Assembly: GCA_020722005.1 (NCBI GenBank)
Contig: DYLP01000009.1
Coordinates: forward strand, 12,227-76,226
Direction: 5' to 3'
DNA from: Melioribacter roseus
GTDB lineage: Bacteria > Bacteroidota > Ignavibacteria > Ignavibacteriales > Melioribacteraceae
DNA: 64,000 nt
Shown here: piece by piece, positions 46,035 through 61,929 of the stretch
Layout of the letters: every line of letters starts with the position of its first letter
How positions within the stretch are numbered: position 1 is the stretch's first letter
Position numbers and translations under genes: made by a program
The notes under the pieces: generated by a model
Database searches by the model: none
What the model was told of the DNA's origin: nothing
What the model saw: the letters and a program-made list of their open reading frames with translations, nothing else

Positions 46035-46851
46035 AGCTCCCGCAAAAATAAATGTCGGTCTGAGAATCCTTCATAAAAGGAGCGACGGTTATCACAATTT
46101 GCATACGCTCTTTTATCCCGTTAATGATCTTTATGATGAAATTACTATTGAACGACAGGAAGAATTCGAATTTTATACAGATAACGAAGAACTGAATACA
46201 GCAGATAATCTAATCGTAAAAGCTGTTGAATTGCTCGGCGATTACTCGAAGAAAAAAATCGGAGCTAAAATTAAATTAAAGAAAAAAATACCCATGGGAG
46301 CAGGACTCGGCGGCGGCAGCTCGGATGCAGCGGCTGCTTTGATTTCTCTGAATGAAATGTTTGCGCTCAATCTTAGTTATAATGAACTAATTGAACTTGC
46401 TCTTAGATTGGGTTCGGATGTCCCGTTCTTCATAAAAGCAAAACCAGCCATTGGATATTCGAGAGGCGAAGTTCTGAAGCATGTCGATTTTGAAATTGAT
46501 AAACCGATATTAATAGTTAATCCAGGCATTCATATTCCGACAAAAGAAGCTTTTGGAAATATTGTCCCCGTAGATAAGGAACTTGATTATACAAAAGTTA
46601 TTGTTGAGGGTAAACCGAATTACGAAGCGATGAACAGCCTCGTCAACGATTTCGAAGATTATGCATTCAATCGATATCCTGAAATAAAAGAATTAAAAGA
46701 AAAATTTTATCATTATGGCTCTCTGTTTGCGCAGATGTCCGGAAGCGGTTCGACAGTCTACGGTATATTCGCAAGTGAATACGACGCCAAGAAAGTTATT
46801 CGAGATATTTCTCCAGATTACTTTTATCATTTATGTAATTATCCGGACTGA
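46015..46851 (+). CDS. ispE: 4-diphosphocytidyl-2-C-methyl-D-erythritol kinase
   Basis: PAKINVGL, PMGAGLGGGSSDAA, GSDVPFF and MSGSGS. Confidence 0.95.
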   Translation: MKYIEIKAPAKINVGLRILHKRSDGYHNLHTLFYPVNDLYDEITIERQEEFEFYTDNEELNTADNLIVKAVELLGDYSKKKIGAKIKLKKKIPMGAGLGGGSSDAAAALISLNEMFALNLSYNELIELALRLGSDVPFFIKAKPAIGYSRGEVLKHVDFEIDKPILIVNPGIHIPTKEAFGNIVPVDKELDYTKVIVEGKPNYEAMNSLVNDFEDYAFNRYPEIKELKEKFYHYGSLFAQMSGSGSTVYGIFASEYDAKKVIRDISPDYFYHLCNYPD

Positions 46852-48253
46852 TCTGAAAGATATCATAGGACTTCGGCTGGAAATTAAATTCAAGCGAAAC
46901 TTTAAAGCACGTACCGGGCATATCTCCTGCTAATCTTGAAGGGCTTTCTACGAATATATTTCCACCGAGGCGTTCAATAATTTCTTTTACCAATGCCAGA
47001 CCCAGCCCACTTCCTTCGTGTTCGCTCCTTTTTACATTCGAGGCTCTGTAAAACTGTTTAAATATATTAGGCAGGTCTTCTTTCGGAATTCCAATTCCAT
47101 TATCGCATATTTCGACCCATAACTTATCATTACTTTCATTGAGTAGTATTTCAATGATGCCCTCTTTTTTTACGTACTTGACAGAATTTGCAATCAGATT
47201 GGAGAACGCCAGTTCCAAAAGAATAATGTCCGACTTAATAATTTTCTTCTCTTTCCTTAAATCTTTGATTCTCAAATCGATAGCTTTGGCTTTGATTGTT
47301 TCATTTAGCTTGTCAATTAGACCGGAAAGCAATTCCCAAATATCGATTTCTTCTGTAGAGCGGATATCAAGCAATTTTAAACGGGATAATCGTAAAATAT
47401 TATTAAGCATTTGCAAAGTCTCATCCGTTCTTATTTGAGCCCTTTTGAGTTTATCTCTTATTTCGGAATTAATATCTCCAAGGAAGTTATTCAGTATCAA
47501 ATCAATTATTGATTTGATGGCAGTTACAGGAGTTTTGACTTCGTGAATAATTCCAATGGTGTATTTTTGTTTTGCTTTCTCGGCTTCGTCGAGGCGTTGC
47601 AATGTTTCTCGCAATTGCTGCTCACGCTTGTAGAGTTGTCTTACTATATTATTTGCGAGATAGACGCTTATAAAAATCATTGCAGTAAATGTTATTAAAC
47701 TCAGTATATCATAAGCCATCGTATGGGGTATCCTTACGTCGTATAAACCGCTTATTAAATGTGTCTCGATAACACCGAAATTTTGCATTATCGTTAAAAA
47801 GGACAACGTAAAGCATATAATGCATACTATGATATAAACTACGTATGCAGGAAGTATCAAACTCCCGATAATCATATGAAATATGAAAAATAAATAAAGA
47901 GGCGATTCGATGATTCCTGTATAATAAACAAGTACCAATAATGCAATCAGGTCGAGTATCATTTGAATCAAAGAAAGATGGAGACTATTGAAACTCGATA
48001 TATCACATTTAATGTATGCACGTAGTTTATAAAGGATAATATTGTACGAGAAGATTGAAATTGTAACGATAGATATGGCGATTTTCTGAAGTTTACTAAA
48101 TTGGAAGTTCAGTAAAAATTCACCTGCCGTTAGAAAAAGCAGCAGAGAAATTACGGCAAAATAGCGGAGCTTGATAAACCAAAGATTTCGAATACGAATA
48201 GCTCGCCAGAATTCGCCGTAATTCTTAGCCCATTCTGGTATAAGAGCTTTCAT
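46796..48253 (-). CDS. Membrane-bound sensor histidine kinase
   Basis: Multi-TM N-terminus; HEVKTP H-box, NLIANSVKY, DNGIGI and GSGLGL. Confidence 0.9.
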   Translation of the reverse strand: MKALIPEWAKNYGEFWRAIRIRNLWFIKLRYFAVISLLLFLTAGEFLLNFQFSKLQKIAISIVTISIFSYNIILYKLRAYIKCDISSFNSLHLSLIQMILDLIALLVLVYYTGIIESPLYLFFIFHMIIGSLILPAYVVYIIVCIICFTLSFLTIMQNFGVIETHLISGLYDVRIPHTMAYDILSLITFTAMIFISVYLANNIVRQLYKREQQLRETLQRLDEAEKAKQKYTIGIIHEVKTPVTAIKSIIDLILNNFLGDINSEIRDKLKRAQIRTDETLQMLNNILRLSRLKLLDIRSTEEIDIWELLSGLIDKLNETIKAKAIDLRIKDLRKEKKIIKSDIILLELAFSNLIANSVKYVKKEGIIEILLNESNDKLWVEICDNGIGIPKEDLPNIFKQFYRASNVKRSEHEGSGLGLALVKEIIERLGGNIFVESPSRLAGDMPGTCFKVSLEFNFQPKSYDIFQISPDNYINDKSNLEKYLE

Positions 48254-48323
48254 TTTATGCTAATTTAAAGGTTGCATAAAGTTGTAAGTAAAATATTGAA
48301 TTAAACTGAGAATCAAAAGAAAT

Positions 48324-48353
48324 AAAAAGCCCGTCCGATAAAAAAGGACGGGC
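48324..48353 (-). terminator. Rho-independent terminator of the hydrogenase operon
   Basis: 8-bp stem GCCCGTCC/GGACGGGC followed by TTTTT on the minus strand, 8 nt after the hydA stop. Confidence 0.85.
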
Positions 48354-48361
48354 AAATATAA

Positions 48362-50278
48362 TCAAGCAATATATCTTCCCCGCTTTACATAATGAGTATG
48401 GAGTAGTTTATGCGATAAATGGCTGCACGGTCCTTCCCTCAAAAATTCTTTGTAAATCCTTATAACATTTGGATTTTCGTGCGACTTTCTGATTTCGAGG
48501 GATTCGTCTTCTGCATAGATTGCTTCGGCACGCTTCATACGAATTTCTGGAGTTGTTGGAATGGGCTGACCACCGCCGCCGAGACATCCACCCGGACAAG
48601 CCATAAACTCAATAAAATGGCACTCGGAGAATTTACCTCCTGATTTTATGTCTTCCATTATTTTCTTTGCATTTGCAGTTCCGTGTGCTACGGCTACTTT
48701 TAATGTAGCACCTTTCAGCCAGTTCCAATCGGGAATGAAATGTTTTATTAAATCGGGTACTCTTCCCACTTTATCTCCGATCGGAATTTCCATATACTTT
48801 ATGCCTTCAAATCCGCGTAGAGGAATAATGTTTGCTCTTTCGAAAATGTCTTCGGTTTTGTTTCCTGTTACGAATTCAACCACAGATCTTAAAGCCGCTT
48901 CCATTACTCCGCCTGTAGCGCCGAAAATAAGACCAGCGCCCGAAGCTTCGCCGAATGGTGAATCGAAATCGCTCTTAGGCATTTCAGGTAAATTTATTCC
49001 TGCTTCTTTAATCATTCGAGCCATTTCACGCGTCGTCAAACCGTAGTCGACATCTTTGTACCCGCTTGAATTCATTTCCGGTCGATTGCACTCGAACTTT
49101 TTAGCCGAACATGGCATCAATGCTACCGAAACAATATTTGCCGGGTCGATTCCTGCCTGCTGAGCATAAAATGTTTTAATCAATGCACCAAACATTTGCT
49201 GAGGCGACTTTGCCGAGCTTAAATTATCGAGATATTCCGGATAATAATGTTCGATGAATTTAACCCATCCAGGCGAGCAGGATGTAAATTGCGGGAGTGC
49301 AACTTTTCCCTTTTTTACCAGTGCATTGTAAAGACGGAGAATTAATTCAGTACCTTCTTCGATAATCGTGAGGTCTGCTGCAAAGTTAGTATCGAATACT
49401 TTGTCGAACCCAATTCGCCTAAGAGCAGTATTTAATTCTCTGGTCATAGATGTGCCGGCAGGCAGTCCGAATTCTTCGCCAATTGCTGCACGTGGCGACG
49501 GTGCAGTTTGAATGACGACGTGTTTTGTCGGTTCGTCGATTGCTTCCCATATTGCATCCGACGGGTCGTTTGCTCGCAAAGCACCCGTGGGACATCGATT
49601 AATACATTGTCCGCAATTGATACAAATTACATCTGCAAGGGGCTTTTCAAGGAAAGTGCCTATATGAGTTTTATCGCCTCTACCAATAGCTTCTAAAACA
49701 CCGACTTCCTGTAAATCGATACAAGTACGCACGCATCTTTTACAAAGGATGCATTTACTCATATCCCTTACGACTGAATACGATGAATTGTCAACTTCGA
49801 AACGTGGCTTGTCGATGTGTCCGAAAGTATAACTATCAACACCATATTCCTTTGCTAAGTTTTGCAATTCACAATTTCCATTACGAAAACATGTATAGCA
49901 TTCGCCATAATGTTCGCTGAGTAGTAAATCGATAATATGTCGACGGGCTTTGCGTACCATCGGAGATGAAGTTTTGATTTTTATGGGAGTGGTAATCGGA
50001 AAAGAACAGGACGCCTGTAATGTACGCATACCCTCGACTTCTACAACACATATACGACAAACGCCTGCAATACATAAATCATCATGATGACAAAGTGTTG
50101 GTATCGATATCCCGACTTTTTTGCAGGCTTCTAATATTGTAGTACCTAACGGAACGGAAATTTTCTTTTCGTTGATTTCAACTGAAACCGTACCACCAAT
50201 ACCCGTTATGTCCTCTGGTATTGGCACACTGTGTGGCACTTGACTTACGGGTACTCTGAAATCTCCTTTATTTCCCAT
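48362..50278 (-). CDS. hydA: Group A [FeFe]-hydrogenase catalytic subunit, copy 2 (M3 architecture)
   Basis: 2Fe-2S, His-ligated 4Fe-4S and 2x4Fe-4S domains; H-cluster motifs TSCSPGW, MPCSAKKFE and EFMACPGGCLGGGGQP. Start ATG 50278 follows GGAGG. Confidence 0.93.
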   Translation of the reverse strand: MGNKGDFRVPVSQVPHSVPIPEDITGIGGTVSVEINEKKISVPLGTTILEACKKVGISIPTLCHHDDLCIAGVCRICVVEVEGMRTLQASCSFPITTPIKIKTSSPMVRKARRHIIDLLLSEHYGECYTCFRNGNCELQNLAKEYGVDSYTFGHIDKPRFEVDNSSYSVVRDMSKCILCKRCVRTCIDLQEVGVLEAIGRGDKTHIGTFLEKPLADVICINCGQCINRCPTGALRANDPSDAIWEAIDEPTKHVVIQTAPSPRAAIGEEFGLPAGTSMTRELNTALRRIGFDKVFDTNFAADLTIIEEGTELILRLYNALVKKGKVALPQFTSCSPGWVKFIEHYYPEYLDNLSSAKSPQQMFGALIKTFYAQQAGIDPANIVSVALMPCSAKKFECNRPEMNSSGYKDVDYGLTTREMARMIKEAGINLPEMPKSDFDSPFGEASGAGLIFGATGGVMEAALRSVVEFVTGNKTEDIFERANIIPLRGFEGIKYMEIPIGDKVGRVPDLIKHFIPDWNWLKGATLKVAVAHGTANAKKIMEDIKSGGKFSECHFIEFMACPGGCLGGGGQPIPTTPEIRMKRAEAIYAEDESLEIRKSHENPNVIRIYKEFLREGPCSHLSHKLLHTHYVKRGRYIA

Positions 50279-51467
50279 TTCGACCTCCGTTCCCGTTAAA
50301 AATTTCTTCTTTGAAATTTTCCAATATCGATATAAATGCATTGGGACTCGATTGACCAAGACCACACTTAGAAGCTACTTTCATCGTTTGTCCTAATTCT
50401 TTTAATTTATTGATATAGGCAAAAGTATATTCACCTTTTTCTATCATTTCGATCCCTTCTGACAATTTTGTATTGCCTATACGACAAGGTGTGCACTGCC
50501 CGCACGATTCTTCGACGAAAAATTTCATGAAGTTTTTCAATACATGGAGCATATTTCTGTTTTCGCCGAATATCATAATTGATCCGCCTGTAGCTGCATC
50601 TTCATATGCAAGGCTCCGATTGAATTGAGATTTCGGTATACATATGCCGGAGGCTCCACCTACTTGAACGGCTTTAACAGATTTAGCTCCGACTATTTCG
50701 AGCAATTCATTTATTGTCGTTCCCCACGGCAATTCATACACGCCGGGGCGTTCACAATCACCTGATACTGAGAAAAGTTTCGAACCTGTAGATTTGTCGG
50801 TTCCATATTTCTTAAACCATTCTCCTCCTTTCAGAACAATGTGAGGAACAGCTGCAAGAGTTTCGACGTTATTTACAACCGTCGGCTTACCCATGTAACC
50901 AGTATTGACGGGATATGGTGGTCTGTTTCTAGCTTCGCCGCGATTGCCTTCGAGCGATTCAATTAATGCAGTTTCTTCGCCGCAGACATAAGCTCCAGAG
51001 CCAAGTCGGATTGTTATGTCGAAATCAAAGCCATTTTTACCGACTATATTTTTACCGAGTAAGTTATCTTTTCTCATAGCCTCCAGATAATCGTTCAATG
51101 ATTTAAGCATATATTCGTATTCCCCCCGCAGATAAACAATACCCTCTGATGCGCCGATTGTGTAACCTGCTATTACCATGCCGTCAAATACGAGTTCTGG
51201 GTATTCGAGTAATAAAGCCCTATCTTTGAAAGTTCCAGGTTCGCCTTCGTCTGCATTACAGATAATAAATTTTTTATCCGATTTGGCAGCGGCTACCATA
51301 TTCCATTTAGTTGCCGTCGGAAAACCTGCACCGCCCCTGCCTTTTAATTTCGATTCCCTTAGTTCGAAAAGAATTTCTTCGCGCGATTTTTCGAGCGCTT
51401 TTTTAATTGCTTCTCCCCTTTTGTATTCGGAGAAAAGTACTATTCCTTTTCTTTCTTTTTTCTCCAT
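50268..51467 (-). CDS. hydB: Short NuoF-like flavoprotein subunit (HydB, non-bifurcating type)
   Basis: GRGGAGFPT, NADEGEPGTFKDR, GAYVCGEETAL and ESCGQCTPCR; lacks the N-terminal 2Fe-2S and C-terminal 2x4Fe-4S domains. Confidence 0.88.
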   Translation of the reverse strand: MEKKERKGIVLFSEYKRGEAIKKALEKSREEILFELRESKLKGRGGAGFPTATKWNMVAAAKSDKKFIICNADEGEPGTFKDRALLLEYPELVFDGMVIAGYTIGASEGIVYLRGEYEYMLKSLNDYLEAMRKDNLLGKNIVGKNGFDFDITIRLGSGAYVCGEETALIESLEGNRGEARNRPPYPVNTGYMGKPTVVNNVETLAAVPHIVLKGGEWFKKYGTDKSTGSKLFSVSGDCERPGVYELPWGTTINELLEIVGAKSVKAVQVGGASGICIPKSQFNRSLAYEDAATGGSIMIFGENRNMLHVLKNFMKFFVEESCGQCTPCRIGNTKLSEGIEMIEKGEYTFAYINKLKELGQTMKVASKCGLGQSSPNAFISILENFKEEIFNGNGGRNGK

Positions 51468-51475
51468 AGCTCACC

Positions 51476-51949
51476 TCACTTTAATTCGCTTAGTATTTGG
51501 ATAGCTTTCTCAGGTGTCAATTTCGTATATACGTTTTCATTGACAATCATGGCTGGACCCTGGTCGCACATTCCGACGCAATTTGCATATTCAAGTGTAA
51601 ATTTATTGTCTTTTGTAGTTTGCCCGAATTTAATGCCGAGTTCTCTTTCGATGGCTTTTGCAACGGCTTCTTTGCCTTGCATATCGCATGCGATTGTCTG
51701 GCAGAGCCTGACGATATATTTCCCTTTTGGTGTAGTGCTGAGGAATGAATAGAAAGTAATTACACTGTAGATTTCGACGGGATGAATATCGAGTAAACGC
51801 GCTATTTCCTGCTGAGCAAAGTCGGGAATATGCTTATGTTTTCGTTGAATATCCTGTAGTATCGGAAGCAAAGAAGACCTGGAACGACCATATTTTTCGA
51901 CAAGTTGTTCTATCTCTTCGGTCATTGCATTTTTTTCTAAAACCAGCAT
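51476..51949 (-). CDS. hydC: NuoE-like 2Fe-2S subunit (HydC), copy 2
   Basis: CQTIAC...CVGMCDQGP. Confidence 0.88.
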   Translation of the reverse strand: MLVLEKNAMTEEIEQLVEKYGRSRSSLLPILQDIQRKHKHIPDFAQQEIARLLDIHPVEIYSVITFYSFLSTTPKGKYIVRLCQTIACDMQGKEAVAKAIERELGIKFGQTTKDNKFTLEYANCVGMCDQGPAMIVNENVYTKLTPEKAIQILSELK

Positions 51950-51950
51950 T

Positions 51951-52331
51951 TTATTTCACCTCCTTTGCTTTCAACAAATTATTGACCTTATTAATTAGTT
52001 CAGACGGTGAAATCGGTTTTTCCACGAAGTCTTCTACTGGTACCATTTCACTCTTGTCGTATTCCATTCCTGTGGCTTTTGAAACCGAGGTGTACATTAA
52101 AATTGGGGTTTTAATCCCTTCCTTACGAAATTTTTGAGCAAGGTAAAAACCATCATCCGGCTCGTCCATCATAACGTCGAGAATAATCAAATCGGGCTTT
52201 TGTTCTACGACAATTTTGTAGCCGTCGTGAGGATTGTCTGCAGTAACTATGTTATGCCCTTGCGATTTGAGTACAATAGAACTGCTGTCGAGGATGTCCG
52301 GATCATCATCGATGATTGCAATTAGAGCCAT
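51951..52331 (-). CDS. Single-domain response regulator
   Basis: IIDDD, phosphoacceptor ILDVMM, YTS and EKP; no output domain. Confidence 0.9.
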   Translation of the reverse strand: MALIAIIDDDPDILDSSSIVLKSQGHNIVTADNPHDGYKIVVEQKPDLIILDVMMDEPDDGFYLAQKFRKEGIKTPILMYTSVSKATGMEYDKSEMVPVEDFVEKPISPSELINKVNNLLKAKEVK

Positions 52332-52346
52332 ATGTCACTCCTGTAG

Positions 52347-53825
52347 TTATTTTATGTTTATGGGTAAATTGATTATAAATGTAGTCCCTTTACCAAATTC
52401 GGACTCCACTTCAATTTTACCGTGATAAGAGTCGACAATTATTTTGACGATACTCAATCCCAAACCAGTACCGCTTATACCGTGCGTCATTTCATTTTTG
52501 GCTCTGTAAAATTCATTGAAAAGTTTTGTTTTCTCTTCAGGTTTTAATCCGATACCTGTATCACTGATTTTTAGTATAAGGTAATTGTGGGATTTGTATA
52601 GCTCTATCTCAATTTTGCCGTTCGTATTATTGTATTTTATTGCATTACTCAACAGGTTGGTGACAACTCGCGTGATTTCGTTATAATCGGCATTTATTGC
52701 GGGAATGTTTTCATCGAGATGTGTTTCGATCGAGATGTTCTTTTTCTTTATGTCGAGTTCGAAAAACTGGAACGAGTTCTCGATTATCTCGCGAATATCA
52801 ATTTGTTCAATTTCCCTCTGTTTCGTATTTAATTCAATTCTCGAAATATCGAGAAGATCGTTAACAAGGTCGGTCAATCCTTTGAGACGCGTTAGAGAAC
52901 GCTTTAAATAGTCTTCCTGTTTTTCAGGTGATAGTTGTATCGATTTATCAATCATTATATTCAGGTAGCCCTGAACTGCGGCAAGTGGGGCTTTTAGTTC
53001 GTGTGCAACCATCGATACAAACTGCGATTTCAGCAATTCGATTTTTTTGTATTCTGTAATGTTGCTGATAATTAAAACAACACCGGCAAGACTACCGTCA
53101 GAATTTGGAATGGGCGTGGTTGAAAATTCCACTATAAGTTGATTGTTCGGTTTGAGTTCGATTTGCTGTGAATAACTTTTCAAGTGAAATGTTTCTGAGT
53201 AGAAAAGTTTATTTACCGTTTTGACTACTTTCTCCGGAAGAATATTTAGTATTTTACTGCCCAATTCAATTTCTGCGAGGTCGAGAAACTTGAGGGCGGC
53301 ATAGTTATAATAGACAAGCTCGGCATTTTTATTTATTACAAGAATGCCGTCGTTAATCGATTTAATTATTGCATTGAGGCGCGATTTTTCGTTTGCCAAC
53401 TCGAGTAGATTTTCTTCGCGTTCTTTTTTCAGTCTTTCCGATTCAAGTATTAATTTCCGTTGATTGATACCCTGCTCGATTTGATAAATAATTTCCTCAG
53501 GAGAAAAGGGCTTTGGTATATATCCGAAAGCACCCAGGCGTGTCGATTCAATAGCTGTTTCGTAACTTGCAAATGCAGTTGCGATAAAGCATACTGTATT
53601 AGGATGCACGGATTTAATCTCCTTAAGCACGGTTAATCCGTCCACATCCGGCATTTTAAGATCGATTATTGCAACGTCGAATTCTTTGGACTTGCCGAGT
53701 CGTATTCCTTCATTACCATTCGGTGCAGATTCCACGTAATAGCCTTCTTCTTCAAGAAGGCGTTCCGTTCCTAATCGTAATCCGTTTTCGTCGTCAACAA
53801 TTAATATTTTGGATTTTTCATCCAT
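52347..53825 (-). CDS. Cytoplasmic hybrid kinase: REC-PAS-HisKA-HATPase
   Basis: IVDDE/IIDLKMP receiver, PAS-like INDGILVIN...YYN, AHELKAPL, NLLSNAIKY and GTGLGL; no TM. Confidence 0.9.
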   Translation of the reverse strand: MDEKSKILIVDDENGLRLGTERLLEEEGYYVESAPNGNEGIRLGKSKEFDVAIIDLKMPDVDGLTVLKEIKSVHPNTVCFIATAFASYETAIESTRLGAFGYIPKPFSPEEIIYQIEQGINQRKLILESERLKKEREENLLELANEKSRLNAIIKSINDGILVINKNAELVYYNYAALKFLDLAEIELGSKILNILPEKVVKTVNKLFYSETFHLKSYSQQIELKPNNQLIVEFSTTPIPNSDGSLAGVVLIISNITEYKKIELLKSQFVSMVAHELKAPLAAVQGYLNIMIDKSIQLSPEKQEDYLKRSLTRLKGLTDLVNDLLDISRIELNTKQREIEQIDIREIIENSFQFFELDIKKKNISIETHLDENIPAINADYNEITRVVTNLLSNAIKYNNTNGKIEIELYKSHNYLILKISDTGIGLKPEEKTKLFNEFYRAKNEMTHGISGTGLGLSIVKIIVDSYHGKIEVESEFGKGTTFIINLPINIK

Positions 53826-53840
53826 TAAAGAATTTATTCA

Positions 53841-54221
53841 TTACATGTTTTTAAGTTTCGCAATCAATTCATCAATTACAACCGGTTTATTCAAAATCTC
53901 ATCGCACTTCAGCCATTCTTTTTCTTCGTTCGTCGAGGCGCTGAATTTAAATCCCGTTGTATAAGGCGCTGAAGTTATAATAAAAACAGGAACATTTGGA
54001 TTACTCTTTTTAATTCTGTGGCAGAGTATAAAGCCCGAATCCATCTCTTCCATTATCAAGTCGATAATGGCTACATTGGGATTTTCTTTCTGAAAAGCTT
54101 CCCAGCCTTTTGCGCCGTTTTCGGCTGTAATTACTTTATATCCTCTGGATTCTAATAATACTTTGTTCTGTTCGAGTAAATCGATATCGTCATCGACTAA
54201 CAGTATTTTTTTTACGTCCAT
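53841..54221 (-). CDS. Single-domain response regulator
   Basis: LVDDD, IIDLIM, ITS and NKP; no output domain. Confidence 0.9.
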   Translation of the reverse strand: MDVKKILLVDDDIDLLEQNKVLLESRGYKVITAENGAKGWEAFQKENPNVAIIDLIMEEMDSGFILCHRIKKSNPNVPVFIITSAPYTTGFKFSASTNEEKEWLKCDEILNKPVVIDELIAKLKNM

Positions 54222-54237
54222 TTTAACACCATCCTTT

Positions 54238-56220
54238 TTAATTCAATATCATATAATTTTGTTTAATAGGTAAAGTCACTTCAAATATAGAGCCTTCAGT
54301 CAGTTTGCTTTTGACTGTAATATCTCCTCTGTGCATTTTAATTATTCCATAGGTAATTGCGAGTCCTAAACCTGTTCCCTTTCCCATTTTTTTTGTAGTA
54401 AAGAAAGGCGTAAAAATTTTATTGAGATACTCTGGCTTTATTCCACAGCCTGTATCCGTAATGACAACTTTGATTTTGTTATCAGTCCCTGTAATAACAA
54501 CGGAAAGAACTTTATCTTTCGAATTTTCCATCGCTTCGCAAGCATTGATGATAATATTCATAAAGGCTTGTCTGAGCTGGTCGCGATCGCACTGTATTTT
54601 AACACCATTGGTTTTATCTTCAACTTTTAGCTCGATATTTCCAAACTCGCTGCGAATTTTAATCAGCTGAAAAATCGAATCGATAATCGACTTGATTTCA
54701 ATTTCTTCAAGACAAAGGCGTCCCTGTCGCGCGAAGTTCAAAAGGTTCGAAACAATTTTTTTACATCTTTCCGTTTCTTCAATTATTAATTTTAAGTCTT
54801 CGATACTTTGTTTTTCGCCGCCAAATTTTTCTATTTTTTTCTTTAACATGGAAGCATAGATTAATATTGAACCGAGTGGGTTGTTCAGTTCGTGAGCTAC
54901 TCCAGCTGCAAGTTGTCCTATAGAAGCAAGCTTTTCGGCATTAGCAAGTTGCTCCTGCGTTTCCTTTATTTCTTTATTGGCTTGTTCTAATTTGTCGATC
55001 AAATAAGGCAGACACATATCTTCTTCTGCCAGCCCTTTGGCAATTGCAATTGCATATTCCCTGCAAGTTGGATATCCGCAGGCGCCACAGTTGAGTTCAT
55101 CTGACTTGGAAGTTTTATTCGATTTTGCCAATATGAATCGTATTGTTTCTTCCGACGGCGTAGGTCTTCGCTGATTCCTAATTGTAAAATTTCTCGAAAG
55201 GTTAATATCCCGATTGTTGTACAAAGTGCTTTGCCATACTTTTTTGTCGAAAGAATTGATGTCCGATTCGATAAAAGAAATTACTTTTTCTCTGCGGGAG
55301 TAATAATTTAATTCGGAATCGATGGCAGGACCGTTAATGCAGCCTTCGCAAAATAAAATATCGACAAATTTCGATCTGATTTTTCTTCCGGAAATTTCGT
55401 TGAGAATCTCTTCTACTTTATCTTTCCCTTCGACAACAATTATTTCCTTCTCCAGAATGTCGCCGTGAGTGTCGGTAGTTTTCAATAGACCGCCAGTTAA
55501 CGGATAAGCCTTTCCCATGTAAGCATGAGGTGGATCGAAAGACGAACTGTCGAGCGAATTAAGATTTATCTGCTTCCGTTCAAAAATTTGTTTTATCTCT
55601 TTGAATGTAAGTACAGCATCGATTGCGCCTTCAACCTCAGGGTCGAGGTATTCGCTTTTCTTTGCAATGCATGGACCGATAAATACAACTTTAATATGGT
55701 TGCCGTAATTTTTCTTAAGGAATCTTCCCATTGCTATCATCGGAGAAACAACAGTTGCAAGATTATCGGCAATTTCCACAAAGTATTTTGTAATCCAATT
55801 ATAAATTGCCGGACAGGGAGAACTAATTATTGTTTTGCCAGGATTGTTTTCTATGTAAGTTTTATATTTATCACTTATAAGGTCTGCACCGAAAGCTGCT
55901 TCGCTTACATGTTTGAATCCGAGTTGTTTTAGAGCTGTAATGAAATGTTTTTCAACTCCTGGAAACGAAGCCGGAAAAGAAGGTGCTACAATTGCATAAG
56001 TATCGTAAAAAGGAATAAATTCATTCAAAACAATTCCTACATCGTTGAGCACCTGTTTGGCGTTTTGAGAACAAACTTTTACACAATGCCCACAGACAAT
56101 ACATCGTTCTTCAATTACTACTGCCTGTCCGTTAAATACGCGTATTGCTCGAGCAGGACATTCCCTGACGCAGGAATAGCATCTTTTACATCTTTGTCCT
56201 ATGGTTGATACAATTCCCAT
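54238..56220 (-). CDS. Putative sensory [FeFe]-hydrogenase fused to a histidine kinase (group C1-like HydS-HK)
   Basis: 2x4Fe-4S; degenerate H-domain motifs SSPCPA, GPCIAKKSE and LFCEGCINGP; FeS motif NCGACGYPTC...C; then AHELNNPL, NACEA and GTGLGL. Confidence 0.88.
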   Translation of the reverse strand: MGIVSTIGQRCKRCYSCVRECPARAIRVFNGQAVVIEERCIVCGHCVKVCSQNAKQVLNDVGIVLNEFIPFYDTYAIVAPSFPASFPGVEKHFITALKQLGFKHVSEAAFGADLISDKYKTYIENNPGKTIISSPCPAIYNWITKYFVEIADNLATVVSPMIAMGRFLKKNYGNHIKVVFIGPCIAKKSEYLDPEVEGAIDAVLTFKEIKQIFERKQINLNSLDSSSFDPPHAYMGKAYPLTGGLLKTTDTHGDILEKEIIVVEGKDKVEEILNEISGRKIRSKFVDILFCEGCINGPAIDSELNYYSRREKVISFIESDINSFDKKVWQSTLYNNRDINLSRNFTIRNQRRPTPSEETIRFILAKSNKTSKSDELNCGACGYPTCREYAIAIAKGLAEEDMCLPYLIDKLEQANKEIKETQEQLANAEKLASIGQLAAGVAHELNNPLGSILIYASMLKKKIEKFGGEKQSIEDLKLIIEETERCKKIVSNLLNFARQGRLCLEEIEIKSIIDSIFQLIKIRSEFGNIELKVEDKTNGVKIQCDRDQLRQAFMNIIINACEAMENSKDKVLSVVITGTDNKIKVVITDTGCGIKPEYLNKIFTPFFTTKKMGKGTGLGLAITYGIIKMHRGDITVKSKLTEGSIFEVTLPIKQNYMILN

Positions 56221-56224
56221 CAGT

Positions 56225-57955
56225 TCATAATTCTTCTAATATTTTTTTTCTGTTGACGTAAGTAGTATGCAATAACTCGTGTGACAGATGACTATTCGGT
56301 TCTCCTAAAAATTCGTTATAGAGTTTTTTGAGAGATTCATTCTCGTGAGATTTTCTGTGTTTCATTTTTGCATCTATTTCATAGAGAGCGCGGGCGCGTT
56401 TTTCTACTTTTTCTGGTTTTTGATGAATTGGCTGACCGCCACCATTTATGCATCCGCCCGGGCATGCCATTACTTCGATGAAATGATATTTAGATTCGCC
56501 TTTTTCGATTTGCTCTAGAATTCCGCGAACATTTCCGATTCCGTTTACAACCGCAACATTGACAGTTGTGCCGTTAATATCGACTGAATATTCTTTTACT
56601 CCGTCGAAGCCTCGTACGTCTGTCAAATCCACGTTTTCTAATTCTTTACCGGAAAGTTTGAAATATGCAGTTCTCAGAGCCGCTTCCATAACGCCGCCGC
56701 TTGTACCGAAAATTGCGGCTGCCCCGGTCGATTCTCCCAGAGGATCGTCGAACTCGTCGTCCGGTAAATCGTTAAAATCGATGCCCGCAACTTTAAAAAG
56801 ACGAACTAACTCTCTTGTGGTCAGAACGGCATCAACGTCTGGCAATTTTGCTTCGGAAAGTTCTGGTCTGCTGGCTTCGAATTTTTTAACCGTACAAGGC
56901 ATTATCGAAACTACAAAAATGTCTTCCGGATTAAGTCCCATTTTTTTTGCATAATACGATTTAATTATAGCCCCTTCCATTTCATGCGGCGATTTACAGG
57001 TTGAAATATGATCGAGCAAATGCGGATAATTTTGTTCGGCAAATTTAATCCATCCAGGGCAGCAACTTGTGAACATCGGAATAGTTCCGCCATTGCTGAG
57101 TCGATTTATGAGTTCTGTGGCTTCTTCGATAATTGTTAAGTCCGCGCCAAAATTCGTATCAAATACTTTATCGAAACCGAGTCTTCTTAGACCTGTAATT
57201 ATTTTACCAGTCACGTTTGTACCAATTGGAAGATTATATTCTTCACCCAAAGTTGCTCTGACGGCAGGTGCAATCTGAGCAACCGTGAATTTCTTTTTGT
57301 CATTTAATGCGTTTACAACTTCTTTTGCATGGCTTCTTTCACGGAGTGCAGCGGTAGGACAAACAAGTATACATTGCCCACATAGTATACAATCGCTGAC
57401 ATTTAGACCTTTGTTAAATGGAGTTGTTACGTTACTTTTGAAACCTCTGTTTGTAAAATCAATTGCGCCAATTTTCTGAATTTCATTGCATGTTCTTACA
57501 CATCTTCCGCATAGTATACATTTAGCAGGGTCGCGTTCCATCGATGGGCTCGAAATATCGATTGCGTGATTTTTCTTTTCGCCTACGTATCTGTGTTCTC
57601 TAATATTGTAGCGTTCTGATAAGTCCTGGAGTTCGCAATTCTTATTTCTAACACAAATCAGACAATCCTGTGGATGATTTTCAATTAATAGTTCTATAAT
57701 TGTTTTTCTGGCTACTCTTACTCTTGATGAGTTAGTTTGAATTTTCATCCCCTCTTTGACAGGGTAGGCGCAACTCGGAATAAGATTTCTCATTCCATCT
57801 ACTTCTACAACACAAATTCTGCATGCACCGGAAGGGAATAAATCTTTCATATAGCATAAGGTCGGGATATGAATCCCTACGGATTTAGCTGCTTCGAGTA
57901 TAGTCATTCCTTCTTCGGCTTTTACTTTTATATCGTTGATTGTTAATTCTATCAT
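56225..57955 (-). CDS. hydA: Group A3 [FeFe]-hydrogenase catalytic subunit, copy 1
   Basis: M3 Fe-S domains; TSCCPGW, MPCTVKKFE and EVMACPGGCINGGGQP. Confidence 0.95.
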   Translation of the reverse strand: MIELTINDIKVKAEEGMTILEAAKSVGIHIPTLCYMKDLFPSGACRICVVEVDGMRNLIPSCAYPVKEGMKIQTNSSRVRVARKTIIELLIENHPQDCLICVRNKNCELQDLSERYNIREHRYVGEKKNHAIDISSPSMERDPAKCILCGRCVRTCNEIQKIGAIDFTNRGFKSNVTTPFNKGLNVSDCILCGQCILVCPTAALRERSHAKEVVNALNDKKKFTVAQIAPAVRATLGEEYNLPIGTNVTGKIITGLRRLGFDKVFDTNFGADLTIIEEATELINRLSNGGTIPMFTSCCPGWIKFAEQNYPHLLDHISTCKSPHEMEGAIIKSYYAKKMGLNPEDIFVVSIMPCTVKKFEASRPELSEAKLPDVDAVLTTRELVRLFKVAGIDFNDLPDDEFDDPLGESTGAAAIFGTSGGVMEAALRTAYFKLSGKELENVDLTDVRGFDGVKEYSVDINGTTVNVAVVNGIGNVRGILEQIEKGESKYHFIEVMACPGGCINGGGQPIHQKPEKVEKRARALYEIDAKMKHRKSHENESLKKLYNEFLGEPNSHLSHELLHTTYVNRKKILEEL

Positions 57956-57973
57956 ATTAATCTCCGTTAGAAA

Positions 57974-59959
57974 TTAATTTACTTTAATTGCGTCAAAACG
58001 GCACGATTCAAAGCACATACCACATTTGGTACATTTAATCTGAATAATCTGATGCGGTTGTTTCTTTTCGCCTATGATTGCTTCGGCCGGACATTTACGT
58101 AAACAGATACCGCAGCCAGTGCATACTTCGGGATCGATTTCGTATGTTAATAATTCTTTACATACTTTGGCGCGGCACTTCCTTTCAAAAAGATGTTCTT
58201 CGTATTCTTCCCTGAAATAGCGCAAGCCCGACAATACTGGATTAGGTGCACTCTGACCTAATCCGCATAATGACGTATCCTGAATTACTTTAGCGAGTCT
58301 CTGAAGATGAATAATCCCTTTGAAACGCTGAAGTTGTTCGGTTTTATCTCCGTTGGTTCCGTATCGAACAGGAATTCTTTCGATAATTTCGAGCATTCTT
58401 TTTGTCCCTTCACGACATGGAACGCATTTACCGCACGATTCATTTTGAATGAATGTTAGGAAAAATTTTGCTACGTCGACCATACAGGTATCTTCATCCA
58501 TAACAACAAAGCCGCCGGAACCCATCATTGCACCAATTTCCCTTAATGATTCATAATCGACTTCAGTATCGAGGACACAATCAGGTAAACATCCGCCAGA
58601 GGGACCGCCAATTTGAACTGCTTTGAATTTTTTGTTGTTCGGAATACCGCCCCCGATGTCGAAGACTACTTCACGCAGAGTAATTCCCATTGGCACTTCG
58701 ACAAGTCCGCTGTTGACAACTTTACCGCTCAATGCGAAAACTTTTGTGCCTTTGCTTGTCTTTGTGCCAATTGATGCAAACGATGCTGCTCCAATGTTTA
58801 TAATCGAAGGTACATTTGCAAAAGTTTCTACATTGTTGATCACGGTAGGTTTACCCCATAAACCACTATCAACAGGATAAGGAGGTCGGGGACGTGGCAT
58901 ACCTCTTTTCCCTTCGATCGAAGCAATTAATGCAGTTTCTTCGCCACATACAAAAGCGCCTGCCCCTTTCTTAATTTTAAGGTCAAAATCGAAATCGCTA
59001 TTAAGTATATTTTTACCGAGCAGACCGTATTCTCTGCATTTAAGAATTGCCTCTTCAAGTCTTTCAATTGCAAGCGGATATTCTGCACGACAGTAGATAT
59101 ATCCATAAGAAGCACCAATTGCGTAAGCTCCTATAATCATTCCTTCAATAACTCTGTAAGGATCGCTTTCCAGTACAGACCTGTCCATAAAGGCTCCGGG
59201 GTCACCCTCGTCCGCATTACAAATTATATATTTTGTATCCGAATTTTTTTTATGTGCGAGTTCCCACTTAATTCCTGTCGGGAAACCGCCTCCCCCTCTT
59301 CCTCTAAGTCCGCTGGCTTTAATTTCTTCAATTACCTTTTCAGGACTGAGAATTCGAAGTGCTTTATCTAAGGCTTTAAATCCATCGGAAGCTATGTATT
59401 CATCAATAGAATTTGGATTTATAACGCCACAATTTTTGAGAACAACTTTTTTCTGCCTTTTGAAAAAAGGAATTTCATTAATATTTGGAATATGGTCTTT
59501 TGTTTCACCATAGGTACCGAGTAATTTTTTCTTATATATTTTTCTCTCGATTATAGTGGTTTTTATCAGTTCTTTGACGTCTTTGGGTTGAATTTCACAA
59601 TATGAAACCCTGTCTTCACCCGCTAATTTGATATCGACTATTGGTTCTCTGGCACAATATCCAACGCATCCGGTAGGTACAACCAGAGCTTTAATATTTT
59701 CATTGGCGAGTTCTTCTTCGATTGCAGTTTTCACTTTATCTGCACCCGAAGCCAGTCCACAGGTGCCCATACCGATAAATATTACTGGAACTTTTGTTGA
59801 CTCGTAGCGCAGCTTTTCGTTAAGACCTTTATATTTTTCTTTACATTTATCGTCTTTATGACAAAGAGGTCCTTCAAGACAGCAAGCTACAAAAAGCTCG
59901 CATGGTTTACTGGGGGAATGCCAGCACTGGTCACAACATTTTTCAATAAAACTTTTCAT
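57974..59959 (-). CDS. hydB: Long HydB flavoprotein subunit (bifurcating type)
   Basis: Thioredoxin-like 2Fe-2S domain, NADEGDPGAFMDR, GAFVCGEET, ESCGKCVPC and C-terminal 2x4Fe-4S; Cys-rich N-terminal extension. Confidence 0.92.
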   Translation of the reverse strand: MKSFIEKCCDQCWHSPSKPCELFVACCLEGPLCHKDDKCKEKYKGLNEKLRYESTKVPVIFIGMGTCGLASGADKVKTAIEEELANENIKALVVPTGCVGYCAREPIVDIKLAGEDRVSYCEIQPKDVKELIKTTIIERKIYKKKLLGTYGETKDHIPNINEIPFFKRQKKVVLKNCGVINPNSIDEYIASDGFKALDKALRILSPEKVIEEIKASGLRGRGGGGFPTGIKWELAHKKNSDTKYIICNADEGDPGAFMDRSVLESDPYRVIEGMIIGAYAIGASYGYIYCRAEYPLAIERLEEAILKCREYGLLGKNILNSDFDFDLKIKKGAGAFVCGEETALIASIEGKRGMPRPRPPYPVDSGLWGKPTVINNVETFANVPSIINIGAASFASIGTKTSKGTKVFALSGKVVNSGLVEVPMGITLREVVFDIGGGIPNNKKFKAVQIGGPSGGCLPDCVLDTEVDYESLREIGAMMGSGGFVVMDEDTCMVDVAKFFLTFIQNESCGKCVPCREGTKRMLEIIERIPVRYGTNGDKTEQLQRFKGIIHLQRLAKVIQDTSLCGLGQSAPNPVLSGLRYFREEYEEHLFERKCRAKVCKELLTYEIDPEVCTGCGICLRKCPAEAIIGEKKQPHQIIQIKCTKCGMCFESCRFDAIKVN

Positions 59960-60426
59960 TCTATACTCACTGCTTGTTCTTGTTTTTTGTACTTATTGAG
60001 AATTTTAGGTATTTCTTTAACGGTCACTCGTCCATAATAATCGTCGTTAATATTAATAACCGGAGCGATACTACAGGCTCCCATACATGCTACAGTTTCG
60101 AGTGTAAATAATTTATCTCGTGTAGTTTGACCCGCGCAAATGCCCAGTTCGTTTTCTAGTGCTGTTAAAATATTAGCTGAATTTTTAACATGGCACGCTG
60201 TTCCCCGGCAAACTCGAATAATATTCTTGCCAAGTGGTGTTAAACGAAACTGATTGTAAAATGTAGCCACGCCGTAAACGCCGCTCACAGACATTCCGAT
60301 GTGGTCGGCAACCTTACGTATTTCTTCCTCAGGTAAATAGCCATAAACTTCCTGGAGATCCTGAAGCATAGCTATTAAATTACTACGGTCATTTTTGGGA
60401 TATTTCTGAAAAATATTGCCTTCCAT
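59956..60426 (-). CDS. hydC: NuoE-like 2Fe-2S subunit (HydC), copy 1
   Basis: VCRGTACHV...CMGACSIAP. Confidence 0.92.
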   Translation of the reverse strand: MEGNIFQKYPKNDRSNLIAMLQDLQEVYGYLPEEEIRKVADHIGMSVSGVYGVATFYNQFRLTPLGKNIIRVCRGTACHVKNSANILTALENELGICAGQTTRDKLFTLETVACMGACSIAPVININDDYYGRVTVKEIPKILNKYKKQEQAVSIE

Positions 60427-60724
60427 GTTATTTTTCTCTTATTTATTTATGTTATTAATTATACACAGATAATATGCCAGAATTTAAGGACAGGAATAAC
60501 TTATTTAACTGTGAAAAATGAGGTTGGTATCCGTTTTTTTACTTCAAACTTTCCTAAGTGTGAGAAAAGTAAAATATGAATTCTAAATTTATAAAGTATA
60601 TTGAGTCTCTTTATGCTATTACATTTCTTTTATTTTGTGCAAAATAATTATGAGAAATAATAATTTTAAAAAATCGGGTTTAAGTTTCGATCTCTGAGCT
60701 GTGAAATTAAATGTTATGAGAGTT

Positions 60725-61219
60725 TTATTGATTTAGATTCGAGTCTTTTTTAAGAACTTCATCTTCCATCATTTTTTTGTACTGAATAATTTTTTCAGAG
60801 AGATTCGAATCGTAAGTAGCTAAAATCTGGATTGCAAGGAGGGCGGCATTCTTTGTACCATCGATTGCAACTGTGGCTACAGGCACTCCACTGGGCATTT
60901 GAACTATCGATAGTAATGAATCAATTCCCTGTAAAGCACCGCTTTTAAGTGGCACTCCAATAACAGGCAGATGAGTGAATGCAGCAACTACGCCGGGTAA
61001 ATGAGCAGCCAAACCAGCTCCAGCAATTACTACCTTAACACCTCTTGTGCTTAATTTTTCAACATAATCCTTCAAATGATTCGGTACTCTATGAGCTGAT
61101 AATATTCTCATTTCATATGAAATATCGAATTGTTCCAAAATTTCGGCAGCTTTTTTCATTACAGGAAGGTCCGAATCGCTACCCATTAGAATGCTTACCA
61201 AAGGATTTTTAGCCGTCAT
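60725..61219 (-). CDS. purE: N5-carboxyaminoimidazole ribonucleotide mutase
   Basis: MGSDSD, SAHR, AGAGLAAHLPG and QMPSGVPVATV. Confidence 0.97.
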   Translation of the reverse strand: MTAKNPLVSILMGSDSDLPVMKKAAEILEQFDISYEMRILSAHRVPNHLKDYVEKLSTRGVKVVIAGAGLAAHLPGVVAAFTHLPVIGVPLKSGALQGIDSLLSIVQMPSGVPVATVAIDGTKNAALLAIQILATYDSNLSEKIIQYKKMMEDEVLKKDSNLNQ

Positions 61220-61284
61220 ATTTGCCTTTCTATTTTATATGAAGATGCATCGCAAATATATAAAAAGGAAATTGCTTAAGACAA

Positions 61285-61929
61285 TTATTTCCTGCTAATC
61301 GAACCAATTCCTGAAACATTTGTTTTTGTCTTGTCTGGGTCACCATAATAATCAATTGAACCGACACCAGATACTGATGCGTTGAGATATTTTGATGCAT
61401 ATACACTGGCGCCTGCAGCACCACTGACAGTTATATAAACATTTTCGGCTTTCAGGGATTTAGCATCAAAATTTCCAGCTCCAGAAATTTCTGCATGTAA
61501 TGTCTTAACTCTACCATCCAACTCTATACTGCCAGCTCCGCTCAGTTCGACGTCAAAATTTTTCGTATCGACATTATAAACGCGCATATTATTTGCACCG
61601 GAGCATTCGATATAATTTAATTCGGGCACTGTTACTACAATTTTTATTTCTTTTCTTGGCGAAATGCTTCTGCGTGTATTGATGATAAGTCGGTTGTGCG
61701 TTACTTTCGTTTCGATAAGAGGCAGAAGATTTTCTTCGGCAGTGATTTCTATCGATTCTTTTTCGCCGCATTTTATTTTTATGTCGTAAGCTCCCCCAAC
61801 TTCAATTTTATTGAAATTTCCTATCTCTCTGGTTTCTGTCCTTAAACTGCCACTACCCCGTACTCCCCAAACTCCACATCCTGCAATATTTATTGCGAGC
61901 ATAAGTAGAATTATAATCTTAACTTTCAT
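61285..61929 (-). CDS. DUF2807/GIN-domain lipoprotein
   Basis: Lipobox-like IAGC, repeated SGAG/SGVG beta-solenoid motifs and YYGDP. Confidence 0.85.
   Translation of the reverse strand: MKVKIIILLMLAINIAGCGVWGVRGSGSLRTETREIGNFNKIEVGGAYDIKIKCGEKESIEITAEENLLPLIETKVTHNRLIINTRRSISPRKEIKIVVTVPELNYIECSGANNMRVYNVDTKNFDVELSGAGSIELDGRVKTLHAEISGAGNFDAKSLKAENVYITVSGAAGASVYASKYLNASVSGVGSIDYYGDPDKTKTNVSGIGSISRK

Follow-up and report, generated by a model that had tools for sequence, protein, structure and literature searches.

A ten-gene operon of a hot-spring Melioribacter, in which two different [FeFe]-hydrogenases of three subunits each flank a set of histidine kinase and receiver genes, probably forms a single regulatory unit throughout the family Melioribacteraceae. 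The unit would be transcribed from one sigma-54-type promoter with an upstream palindrome, so placing both enzymes under the joint control of an H2-responsive pathway that acts through an unlinked activator. The operon lies on the minus strand of a 64-kb window, by which we mean the whole stretch of DNA analysed (64,000 nucleotides). The source genome is 2.66 Mb in 79 contigs and is 99% complete; by sensor kinase identity its nearest relatives are Melioribacter sp. OK-6-Me (93%) and Ez-97 (90%), and the window sequence was found in biofilm and hot-spring DNA metagenomes.

Ten co-oriented open reading frames (ORFs) run from 60426 to 48362, and their Pfam domain architectures give the order HydC1, long HydB1, HydA1, HydS-histidine kinase (HydS-HK), receiver (REC1), REC-PAS-kinase, receiver (REC2), HydC2, short HydB2 and HydA2 (Table 1). 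An initial annotation of this DNA had described ten co-oriented genes with gaps of 18 nt or less and one terminator, and the ORFs and their architectures agree with that description. From hydC1 to hydA2 the nine junctions measure -4, 18, 4, 16, 15, 15, 1, 8 and -11 nt. The REC2 stop codon thus stands 1 nt ahead of hydC2, a gap that in 22 genomes has a median of 1 nt and a range of -2 to 10 nt, and in all 21 loci with a measured junction the end of hydB2 overlaps the start of hydA2 by 7 to 11 nt. For hydA2 the ATG at 50278 was taken as the start in preference to the GTG at 50365, since the N-terminus that begins at this ATG is conserved in 22 orthologues. A strong intrinsic terminator begins 9 nt past the hydA2 stop codon and consists of GCCCGTCC, a 9-nt loop, GGACGGGC and then TTTTTATTT. 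Our automatic scan for sigma-70-type promoters and terminators missed this terminator because its loop limit was 8 nt; the scan also returned fewer sites than it did for shuffled sequence, and was uninformative. A scan of positions 46000-62500 for regulatory RNAs gave no match to an Rfam family.

Promoter elements were found by aligning the hydC1-upstream regions of 20 loci, in which the surrounding sequence has diverged. The motif TGGCAY-N5-NTG, represented in the window by TGGCATATTATCTG, was present 44-66 nt upstream of the hydC1 ATG in all 20 loci, with TGGCA and TG invariant at the correct sigma-54 spacing. In its form and spacing the element is like a sigma-54 -24/-12 promoter, and its use is probably sigma-54-dependent. 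In the locus of a metagenome-assembled genome (MAG) labelled M. roseus (L029), it reads as the full canonical TGGCAC-N5-TTGC. Across 795 kb of orthologous loci the motif was matched 28 times, 19 of them at the hydC1-upstream site. That site was also the only minus-strand match in or near the operon, and no internal sigma-54 sites were found on the operon's minus strand.

Farther upstream lies a 16-bp imperfect palindrome that, from 60566 to 60551, reads TTCTCAC-N3-TTAGGAA. In 18 of the 20 orthologous loci it precedes the -24 element by 74-94 nt, a distance that fits the range of ~70-150 bp for an upstream activating sequence (UAS). The consensus TTCTYA-N4-TARGAA occurs once in the window and once in each of 17 orthologous loci (twice in L035), and it sits upstream of hydC1 in each of those for which hydC1 was mapped. 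Promoter and palindrome, as candidate sites, probably represent the usual enhancer arrangement for an NtrC-type activator, and both are newly described here for this operon. By Pfam, no operon protein carries a DNA-binding or other output domain. With no DNA-binding output of its own, and with a single conserved sigma-54-like promoter preceded by a palindrome, the operon probably depends on an unlinked activator. These same features bear on the initial annotation, which had called the operon self-contained; the absence of an output domain and the conserved promoter and palindrome instead imply an activator encoded elsewhere.

Mapping of the window's proteins onto other loci recovered the complete ten-gene order in at least 20 other Melioribacteraceae or Ignavibacteria genomes, down to 58% HydS identity, including the MAG labelled M. 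roseus, Rosettibacter primus and a Stygiobacter MAG. A search for this architecture across genomes had been suggested in the initial annotation, and the recurrence of the order indicates that the arrangement did not arise by chance. Two Bacteroidota loci have a shorter version made up of HydCBA, HydS-HK, a receiver and a REC-kinase without PAS, and have no second hydrogenase. Because the Bacteroidota version has a single hydrogenase, the sensor-receiver-hybrid kinase block must be older than the second hydrogenase, a Melioribacteraceae addition. In these variants (L041:7899-9458 and L042:13493-15089) the block is followed by a gene for a Rex-type redox repressor and a gene for FAD synthetase; the Melioribacteraceae operon has neither gene. 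Rex control of the operon was rejected, as there is no Rex box (TTGTGAA-N4-TTCACAA) upstream of it: at 3 mismatches the window has nine matches, which equals the chance expectation, and none is in the promoter region.

Published data indicate when the operon is expressed in Melioribacter roseus. The supplementary proteome of Gavrilov 2017 (PMC5492636) includes MROS_2480 to MROS_2489, which are the ten operon orthologues plus a membrane kinase encoded just downstream. Values for these proteins were 0.2 to 0.67 in the three replicates of one condition and zero in the three replicates of the other; by the main text of that paper, the positive condition was fermentation and the other aerobic growth. 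Nine of the ten operon proteins and MROS_2489 were detected in all three fermentation replicates and REC1 in one of the three, while none was detected in aerobic cells. With all ten orthologues detected under fermentation, fermenting cells contain both hydrogenases and the complete cascade at once. Two of the M. roseus annotations differ from what we observed. MROS_2483 is annotated as a 'sigma-54 dependent transcription regulator', though the sensor-kinase orthologues that we examined have kinase domains and no AAA+ domain. MROS_2487 is annotated as one fused protein of HydC2 and HydB2, although here, as in the MAG labelled M. roseus, the two are encoded by separate ORFs. The M. roseus papers (Kadnikov 2013, PMC3534657; PMC5492636) called all of the hydrogenases bifurcating and passed over the sensor kinase, the receivers, the short HydB and the promoter.

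Previous work (Losey 2020, PMC7311640) set out rules, in T. maritima HydB numbering, by which bifurcating beta subunits have extra Fe-S domains, Ala/Glu232, Met234, Phe367 and GGPSG, and NADH-only beta subunits have no extra Fe-S domains, Thr/Ser232, Lys/Ser/Ala234, Tyr367 and no GGPSG; Schut 2022 states the same rule. By Pfam, HydB1 consists of a Cys-rich prefix, a thioredoxin-like region, Complex1_51K, SLBB, NADH_4Fe-4S and two Fer4 domains, i.e., it has an N-terminal [2Fe-2S] domain and two C-terminal [4Fe-4S] sites beyond the NuoF core. It aligns end to end with the solved bifurcating HydB/BfuB chains 7q4v_B, 7t2r_B, 7p5h_B and 8a6t_B, and carries GDPGAFMDR, GAGAFVCGEE and GGPSG (A-M-F type), which are also found in 22-24 of 24 orthologues. 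HydA1 has Fer2_4, NADH-G, Fer4, Fe_hyd_lg_C and a small-subunit domain (SSU), and its H-cluster motifs are intact (TSCCPGW, MPCTVKKFE and EVMACPGGCINGGGQP). Both HydA subunits pass NF040763, the NCBIfam model for multimeric NADH-dependent [FeFe]-hydrogenases. HydC1B1A1 is predicted to be a Bfu/HydABC-type (group A3) enzyme that couples NADH and reduced ferredoxin to H2 by bifurcation, and Table S1 of Losey 2020 (PMC7311640) gives the M. roseus 661-aa subunit as bifurcating. In subunits, cluster-binding domains and diagnostic residues, HydC1B1A1 resembles the HydABC enzymes of T. maritima, A. woodii and T. kivui. There are two differences. HydB1 has an added prefix domain relative to Bfu-family HydB: its Cys/His-rich residues 1-50 (59810-59959) match NF040902, the 'CCxxC motif-containing NuoF prefix domain', with 63.6 bits against a cut-off of 45. 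HydA1 has no counterpart of the extra C-terminal [2Fe-2S] domain found in T. maritima HydA, a domain also noted to be missing from the HydA subunits of I. album (Liu 2012, PMC3362086).

HydB2, in contrast to HydB1, is of NuoF length, has only the 51K, SLBB and NADH_4Fe-4S domains, and matches just the core (residues ~140-525) of the long HydB chains. Its own motifs are GEPGTFKDR, GSGAYVCGEE and GGASG (T-K-Y type, no GGPSG); among 24 sequences GEPGTFKDR is found in all, and GxGAY[VI]CGEE and GGASG in 23 each. HydB2 is 81% identical to I. album YP_005845236 (IALB_0256), which in Table S1 of Losey 2020 (PMC7311640) is a 409-aa subunit with T/K/Y/GGASG, predicted to be non-bifurcating. HydC2B2A2 is accordingly predicted to be a Syntrophomonas wolfei-type enzyme that links NADH and H2 without ferredoxin. 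Domain content, alignment with the solved chains, diagnostic residues and the I. album match all agree with the initial annotation that the long HydB1 and the short HydB2 bear bifurcating and non-bifurcating signatures, respectively. Like HydC2B2A2, S. wolfei Hyd1ABC (Losey 2017, 2020) is trimeric and has a HydB of ~400 aa with T-K-Y and neither GGPSG nor extra Fe-S domains. The hosts differ, S. wolfei being an obligate syntroph and the Melioribacter host a sugar-fermenting facultative anaerobe in which the enzyme is co-encoded with a bifurcating one.

The first H-cluster motif of HydA2 is TSCSPGW rather than TSCCPGW in all 23 sequences compared, so that a Ser stands at residue ~334, where the cluster ligand Cys300 would be. 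Liu 2012 (PMC3362086) noted the same Cys-to-Ser change in I. album IALB_0257 and relayed a suggested bias towards H2 oxidation. The possibility that TSCSPGW is the sign of a dead HydA2 was rejected, given that the active, solved HydA1 of 7q4v shows the same motif. Other features of HydA2 are a conserved N-terminal extension of 28 residues and insertions close to residues 322-328 and 503-520. A recent duplication of the two hydrogenases was ruled out by the identities of their subunits, which are 47% for HydA1 and HydA2, 43% for HydB1 and HydB2, and 35% for HydC1 and HydC2. The whole genome encodes three H-domains, all within the operon. The maturase genes hydEFG lie outside the window, as the initial annotation said, and their absence from the genome was to have counted against its proposal; yet a profile search of the genome placed two of them, hydG and hydE, on contig C29 and the third, hydF, on contig C18, each scoring above its NCBIfam cut-off. 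In the short stretches examined at hydG, hydE and hydF, neither the promoter motif nor the palindrome was present.

The third H-domain is that of HydS-HK, in which two Fer4 domains, Fe_hyd_lg_C, the FeS domain PF04060, HisKA and HATPase_c are joined in one polypeptide, giving three accessory [4Fe-4S] sites besides the H-cluster site. In motif 1, SSPCPA, the proton-relay Cys299 is changed to Pro and the cluster ligand Cys300 is retained; in motif 2, GPCIAKKSE, Met353 is changed to Gly, as in TmHydS; in motif 3, LFCEGC, Met497 is changed to Leu and the spacing is Cx2C. The H-domain is followed by a Cx2Cx4Cx16C site, as described for the M2e and M2f classes (PMC8163306), and then by a conserved H-box, AHELNNP, at His443. 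A search of 1.84 billion representatives supplied 124 relatives. In these the four-Cys site (C378, C381, C386 and C403) was invariant, as were C184 and C291, C136 and C294 were conserved in at least 90%, and Lys358 and Glu361 (CpI numbering) were invariant or nearly so. An AlphaFold model had a mean predicted local distance difference test score (pLDDT) of 72, with the H-domain and the catalytic ATP-binding domain confidently placed. In the model a single helix, 404-445, spans from the last cluster ligand, C403, to the phospho-accepting His443; its confidence is low, which is expected because the model is a monomer of a dimeric kinase. Foldseek matched the C-terminal part to ZraS and HK853, and the ~420 N-terminal residues to T. 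kivui HydA, CbA5H and CpI. The sequence of the kinase core is most like those of AtoS and ZraS, two kinases whose partners are sigma-54 activators.

HydS-HK thus appears to be a sensory [FeFe]-hydrogenase of the HydDB group C1 type (histidine kinase-linked), with the subclass label uncertain because one paper finds kinase-domain proteins among HydDB C3 best matches. Pfam domains, motifs, model and fold matches are all in keeping with the initial annotation, which had read the middle gene as a sensory-type H-domain fused to a kinase. It had also held that kinase-linked H2 sensors are biochemically uncharacterised, and this is so; it is the PAS-linked TmHydS and the M2e enzyme TamHydS that have been studied spectroscopically (PMC8163306, PMC13104023). 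HydS-HK resembles the HydDB C1 enzymes, TmHydS and TamHydS in its two N-terminal [4Fe-4S] sites, the absence of the proton-relay Cys and the C-terminal Cx2Cx4Cx16C site, and these sensory enzymes likewise adjoin a bifurcating hydrogenase. Compared with TmHydS and TamHydS, HydS-HK has no PAS domain, has its kinase fused directly, and has Pro at position 299, Leu at 497 and the Cx2C spacing in motif 3.

A Pfam census of sensor-module relatives covered 66 sequences. The 65 nearest representatives at 50% identity included 38 kinase fusions and 14 direct fusions to a sigma-54 activator; other domains found among them were PAS (8), GGDEF (3) and MCP (3). These activator fusions are independent comparative support for the predicted link to sigma-54. 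In two Desulfuromonadales MAGs (L045:9986-12295 and L046:8492-10879) the sensor module is fused directly to Sigma54_activat and HTH_8, and the resulting protein (Fer4 x2, H-domain, PF04060, Sigma54_activat, HTH_8) is a putative one-component activator that senses H2 or redox state. The fusion gene in L045 adjoins genes for a GAF-PtsP homologue and oligopeptide ABC ATPases, and no hydrogenase. In the Bacteroidales MAG L042, a second sensor, of the PAS type (640 aa), is encoded with a SpoIIE-family phosphatase beside another HydA and HydC (2395-5501, minus strand), so that two different putative H2-sensing systems, PAS-type and kinase-linked, occur in one neighbourhood. In metagenomes the sensor-module family had 4809 clusters at E <= 1e-10 among 8000 candidates scored.

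The three receivers of the operon all keep the acceptor Asp, the Thr/Ser and the Lys. The best NCBIfam likeness of REC1 is to NtrC-family receivers such as GlrR, that of REC2 is to OmpR-family receivers, and the hybrid kinase has a PnpS/PhoR/WalK-like core. These likenesses fit adjacent pairs, with HydS-HK as the putative partner of REC1 and the hybrid kinase as that of REC2. REC1 and REC2 are ~30% identical and share an unusual D-x-[IM]-M-[DE]-E-x-D-x-G-F sequence after the acceptor Asp; in both, the conserved Thr/Ser is followed by an insertion that is absent from the hybrid kinase's receiver. The membrane kinase beyond the terminator is a conserved neighbour in many orthologous Melioribacteraceae loci, and it may be an associate of the same signalling network.

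Table 1. Features of the hydrogenase operon and its flanks, in window coordinates.
Feature	Position	Strand	Description
hydC1	59956..60426	minus	NuoE-like [2Fe-2S] subunit of hydrogenase 1; NuoE family; Pfam PF01257 (2Fe-2S_thioredx), E = 6.8e-53
hydB1	57974..59959	minus	661 aa; long, bifurcating-type flavin subunit (predicted)
hydA1	56225..57955	minus	catalytic [FeFe]-hydrogenase subunit 1; Fe_hyd_lg_C E = 2.5e-103; NF040763 907 bits
hydS-HK	54238..56220	minus	660 aa; sensory-type H-domain fused to NtrB/ZraS-type histidine kinase
REC1	53841..54221	minus	stand-alone receiver; PF00072
REC-PAS-HisKA-HATPase hybrid kinase	52347..53825	minus	identified by Pfam domains
REC2	51951..52331	minus	stand-alone receiver; PF00072
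hydC2	51476..51949	minus	NuoE-like [2Fe-2S] subunit of hydrogenase 2; PF01257, E = 6.1e-52
hydB2	50268..51467	minus	399 aa; short, NuoF-like, non-bifurcating-type flavin subunit (predicted)
hydA2	48362..50278	minus	catalytic [FeFe]-hydrogenase subunit 2; Fe_hyd_lg_C E = 1.2e-87; NF040763 807 bits
intrinsic terminator	48319..48353	minus	8-bp G+C-rich stem, 9-nt loop, T-run; read by eye
membrane histidine kinase	46796..48253	minus	HisKA + HATPase_c; hydrophobic N-terminal half; beyond terminator, outside operon
sigma-54-type -24/-12 element	60466..60479	minus	TGGCATATTATCTG; conserved motif upstream of hydC1
16-bp imperfect palindrome	60551..60566	minus	TTCTCACACTTAGGAA; candidate enhancer (UAS) for unlinked activator

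In the pathway that we propose, H2 would bind the H-cluster of HydS, a predicted slow enzyme of the sensory type, and change the autophosphorylation of the kinase. Phosphoryl groups would pass from HydS-HK to REC1, to the receiver of the hybrid kinase, or to both, and the hybrid kinase would add a second input through its PAS domain and phosphorylate REC2. The final output would lie outside the operon, most likely in an NtrC-family enhancer-binding protein that acts at the conserved palindrome, and the whole operon, both enzymes together, would be set according to H2 and to redox state or oxygen. The two enzymes would work side by side, not in alternation. The bifurcating enzyme would remove NADH and reduced ferredoxin 1:1, while the NADH-only enzyme would trim the pool of NADH, with H2 evolved when its pressure is low and taken up when it is high; summed, the two enzymes could serve any ratio of NADH to ferredoxin. 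The cofactor use of each enzyme, the sensing of H2, the route of phosphotransfer and the dependence on sigma-54 are what we infer here.

Several observations weigh against this proposal. The canonical C of the -12 element is present in just 6 of the 20 loci, and a search confined to the 64-kb window and the relatives' 10-kb flanks found no rpoN or RpoN box and no GAFTGA activator there. The 2026 study of TamHydS found that its C-terminal cluster is not reduced by H2, so a simple redox relay through the C-terminal cluster is doubtful. The M. roseus proteome contrasts fermentative with aerobic cells, not high with low H2, and differential translation, stability or activity of the two enzymes may occur in that organism. 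The rules that separate bifurcating from non-bifurcating sequences rest on a handful of characterised enzymes. Finally, none of the public RNA runs searched for the window sequence matched it; the matches were to DNA metagenomes only.

Other explanations of the operon must be weighed against joint control by an H2-responsive pathway. HydC2B2A2 might function mainly in uptake, forming NADH by the oxidation of H2, and be induced by the sensor when H2 is available, as in the soluble hydrogenase regulon of Ralstonia eutropha, instead of taking part in fermentation. The TSCSPGW motif, found in HydA2 of all orthologues, is the feature to which the bias hypothesis relayed in the I. album paper (PMC3362086) applies, and the same motif occurs in HydA1 of Acetobacterium woodii, an enzyme that oxidises H2 in vivo. 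Further, once H2 exceeds a few tens of Pa the direction taken by an NADH-only enzyme is uptake, and the predicted layout of a sigma-54 promoter and an H2 sensor kinase parallels HoxJ/HoxA. We nevertheless consider a mainly uptake role unlikely, given that in M. roseus the orthologues were detected in fermenting cells alone, alongside the H2-evolving enzyme, with none in aerobic cells, and given that the S. wolfei type of enzyme evolves H2 in vivo.

The nature of the signal is a second issue. HydS-HK might report redox state, i.e., the ferredoxin/NADH pool or oxygen damage to Fe-S clusters, rather than H2, with the H-domain serving mainly as a scaffold. Against this, the four H-cluster cysteines, Lys358 and Glu361 are invariant or nearly so in the 124 relatives, the genome encodes the maturases, the H-cluster bound by the characterised relatives TmHydS and TamHydS reacts with H2, and in most genomes the HydS gene adjoins hydrogenase genes. 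The redox explanation would account for the three accessory [4Fe-4S] sites besides the H-cluster site, for the unresponsiveness of the TamHydS C-terminal cluster to H2, for the production of the M. roseus operon proteins anaerobically and not aerobically, and for related modules beside non-hydrogenase genes, such as that of the GAF-PtsP homologue in Desulfuromonadales. On balance we think the redox explanation rather improbable.

The initial annotation had proposed that the cascade senses H2 and selects between the enzymes, with the bifurcating enzyme used at high H2 and the NADH-only enzyme at low H2. In its favour, the signalling genes of every genome are placed exactly between the two sets of enzyme genes; the operon encodes a pair of single-domain receivers, weakly like the DivK and CpdR families, and lacks any DNA-binding output; thermodynamics would make an NADH-only enzyme useful for H2 evolution at low H2 only; and R. 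albus provides a precedent for an H2-dependent choice between hydrogenases. Selection of this kind is not expected, however, from a unit with one promoter, one terminator and tightly, translationally coupled junctions (including the REC2-hydC2 gap with its median of 1 nt), all ten orthologues of which are present together at similar levels in fermenting M. roseus. In Bacteroidota the same signalling block accompanies a single hydrogenase, so the block does not need a pair of enzymes from which to choose. For these reasons a switch between two modes fits poorly, and we regard it as an improbable explanation. It would have to act after transcription, for example by the receivers binding a complex or targeting it for inactivation or proteolysis, as with receivers of the DivK and CpdR types; no contact between a receiver and a hydrogenase is known. 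Because of the single promoter and the co-expression, the sole form of switch that still fits is a post-translational one, in which REC1 and REC2, phosphorylated in response to H2, would themselves be the outputs and, by binding the hydrogenases or a protease adaptor, would shift electron flow between the enzymes. We consider this very improbable; if true, direct control of electron bifurcation by a two-component system at the level of the enzyme would be seen for the first time.

Joint control of the two hydrogenases can be compared with known systems. In the group 2b [NiFe] sensors, HoxBC-HoxJ-HoxA of Ralstonia eutropha and HupUV-HupT-HupR of Rhodobacter capsulatus, a slow hydrogenase signals through a histidine kinase to hydrogenase operons, an outline that the proposed pathway shares. 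HoxA is an NtrC-family activator at sigma-54 promoters. The [NiFe] sensors have an unrelated metal site and belong to an unrelated protein family, and the operon described here differs further in fusing sensor and kinase and in adding receivers and a second kinase. Another comparison is with HydS, HydA2 and HydABC of Ruminococcus albus (Zheng 2014; Greening 2019, PMC6776011), where HydS is a putative [FeFe] H2 sensor that is co-transcribed with a hydrogenase. R. albus has bifurcating and non-bifurcating enzymes, as predicted for the present organism, and their use depends on the H2 level (PMC6776011). In R. albus, however, the sensor is PAS- and phosphatase-linked, the non-bifurcating enzyme is monomeric and uses ferredoxin only, and the enzymes are encoded in separate, differentially regulated units. 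The hydrogenases IALB_0255-0257 and IALB_0529-0531 of I. album (PMC3362086) are likewise a pair in which one enzyme has a long and the other a short HydB, but they are encoded at separate loci ~270 genes apart, whereas the pair studied here belongs to a single operon and flanks the signalling genes. M. roseus P3M-2 has the orthologous genes in the same order (Mros2480-2488), plus a third hydrogenase, Mros0634-0636, that the genome studied here lacks.

Individual elements of the operon have been noted elsewhere. Losey 2020 (PMC7311640) pointed out that some genomes encode both HydB types, a C1 enzyme beside a bifurcating hydrogenase has been noted in Petrimonas mucosa, and kinase-fused group C enzymes have been noted in Elusimicrobia and Hydrogenedentota. 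Every part of the operon is of a known type, and its layout is shared across the family. The initial annotation had put the operon forward as its best candidate for an undescribed system, a description that goes too far: the locus is in the M. roseus genome published in 2013, the long and short pair of I. album dates from 2012, HydDB has listed the class 'C1, histidine kinase-linked (putative)' since 2016, and an H2-dependent choice has been proposed for R. albus (PMC6776011). In the literature we came across no account of the ten-gene arrangement, of the short HydB in Melioribacter or of the promoter.

The operon bears on whether group C and D [FeFe]-hydrogenases sense H2 and on how the signal is passed on, a subject on which the 2026 TamHydS study asks for interaction partners. 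It offers a tractable test of H2 sensing, with a sensor and a kinase that are predicted by the structural model to be joined by a single helix, with likely partners encoded in adjacent genes, and with a candidate promoter and enhancer. M. roseus P3M-2 is cultivable and makes all ten proteins at easily detected levels in fermentation. The sensor family is abundant in metagenomes, where generic annotation names conceal it. Because both HydB types occur in one cell and probably on one transcript, the locus is also a natural test of the rules that distinguish bifurcating from non-bifurcating HydB subunits.

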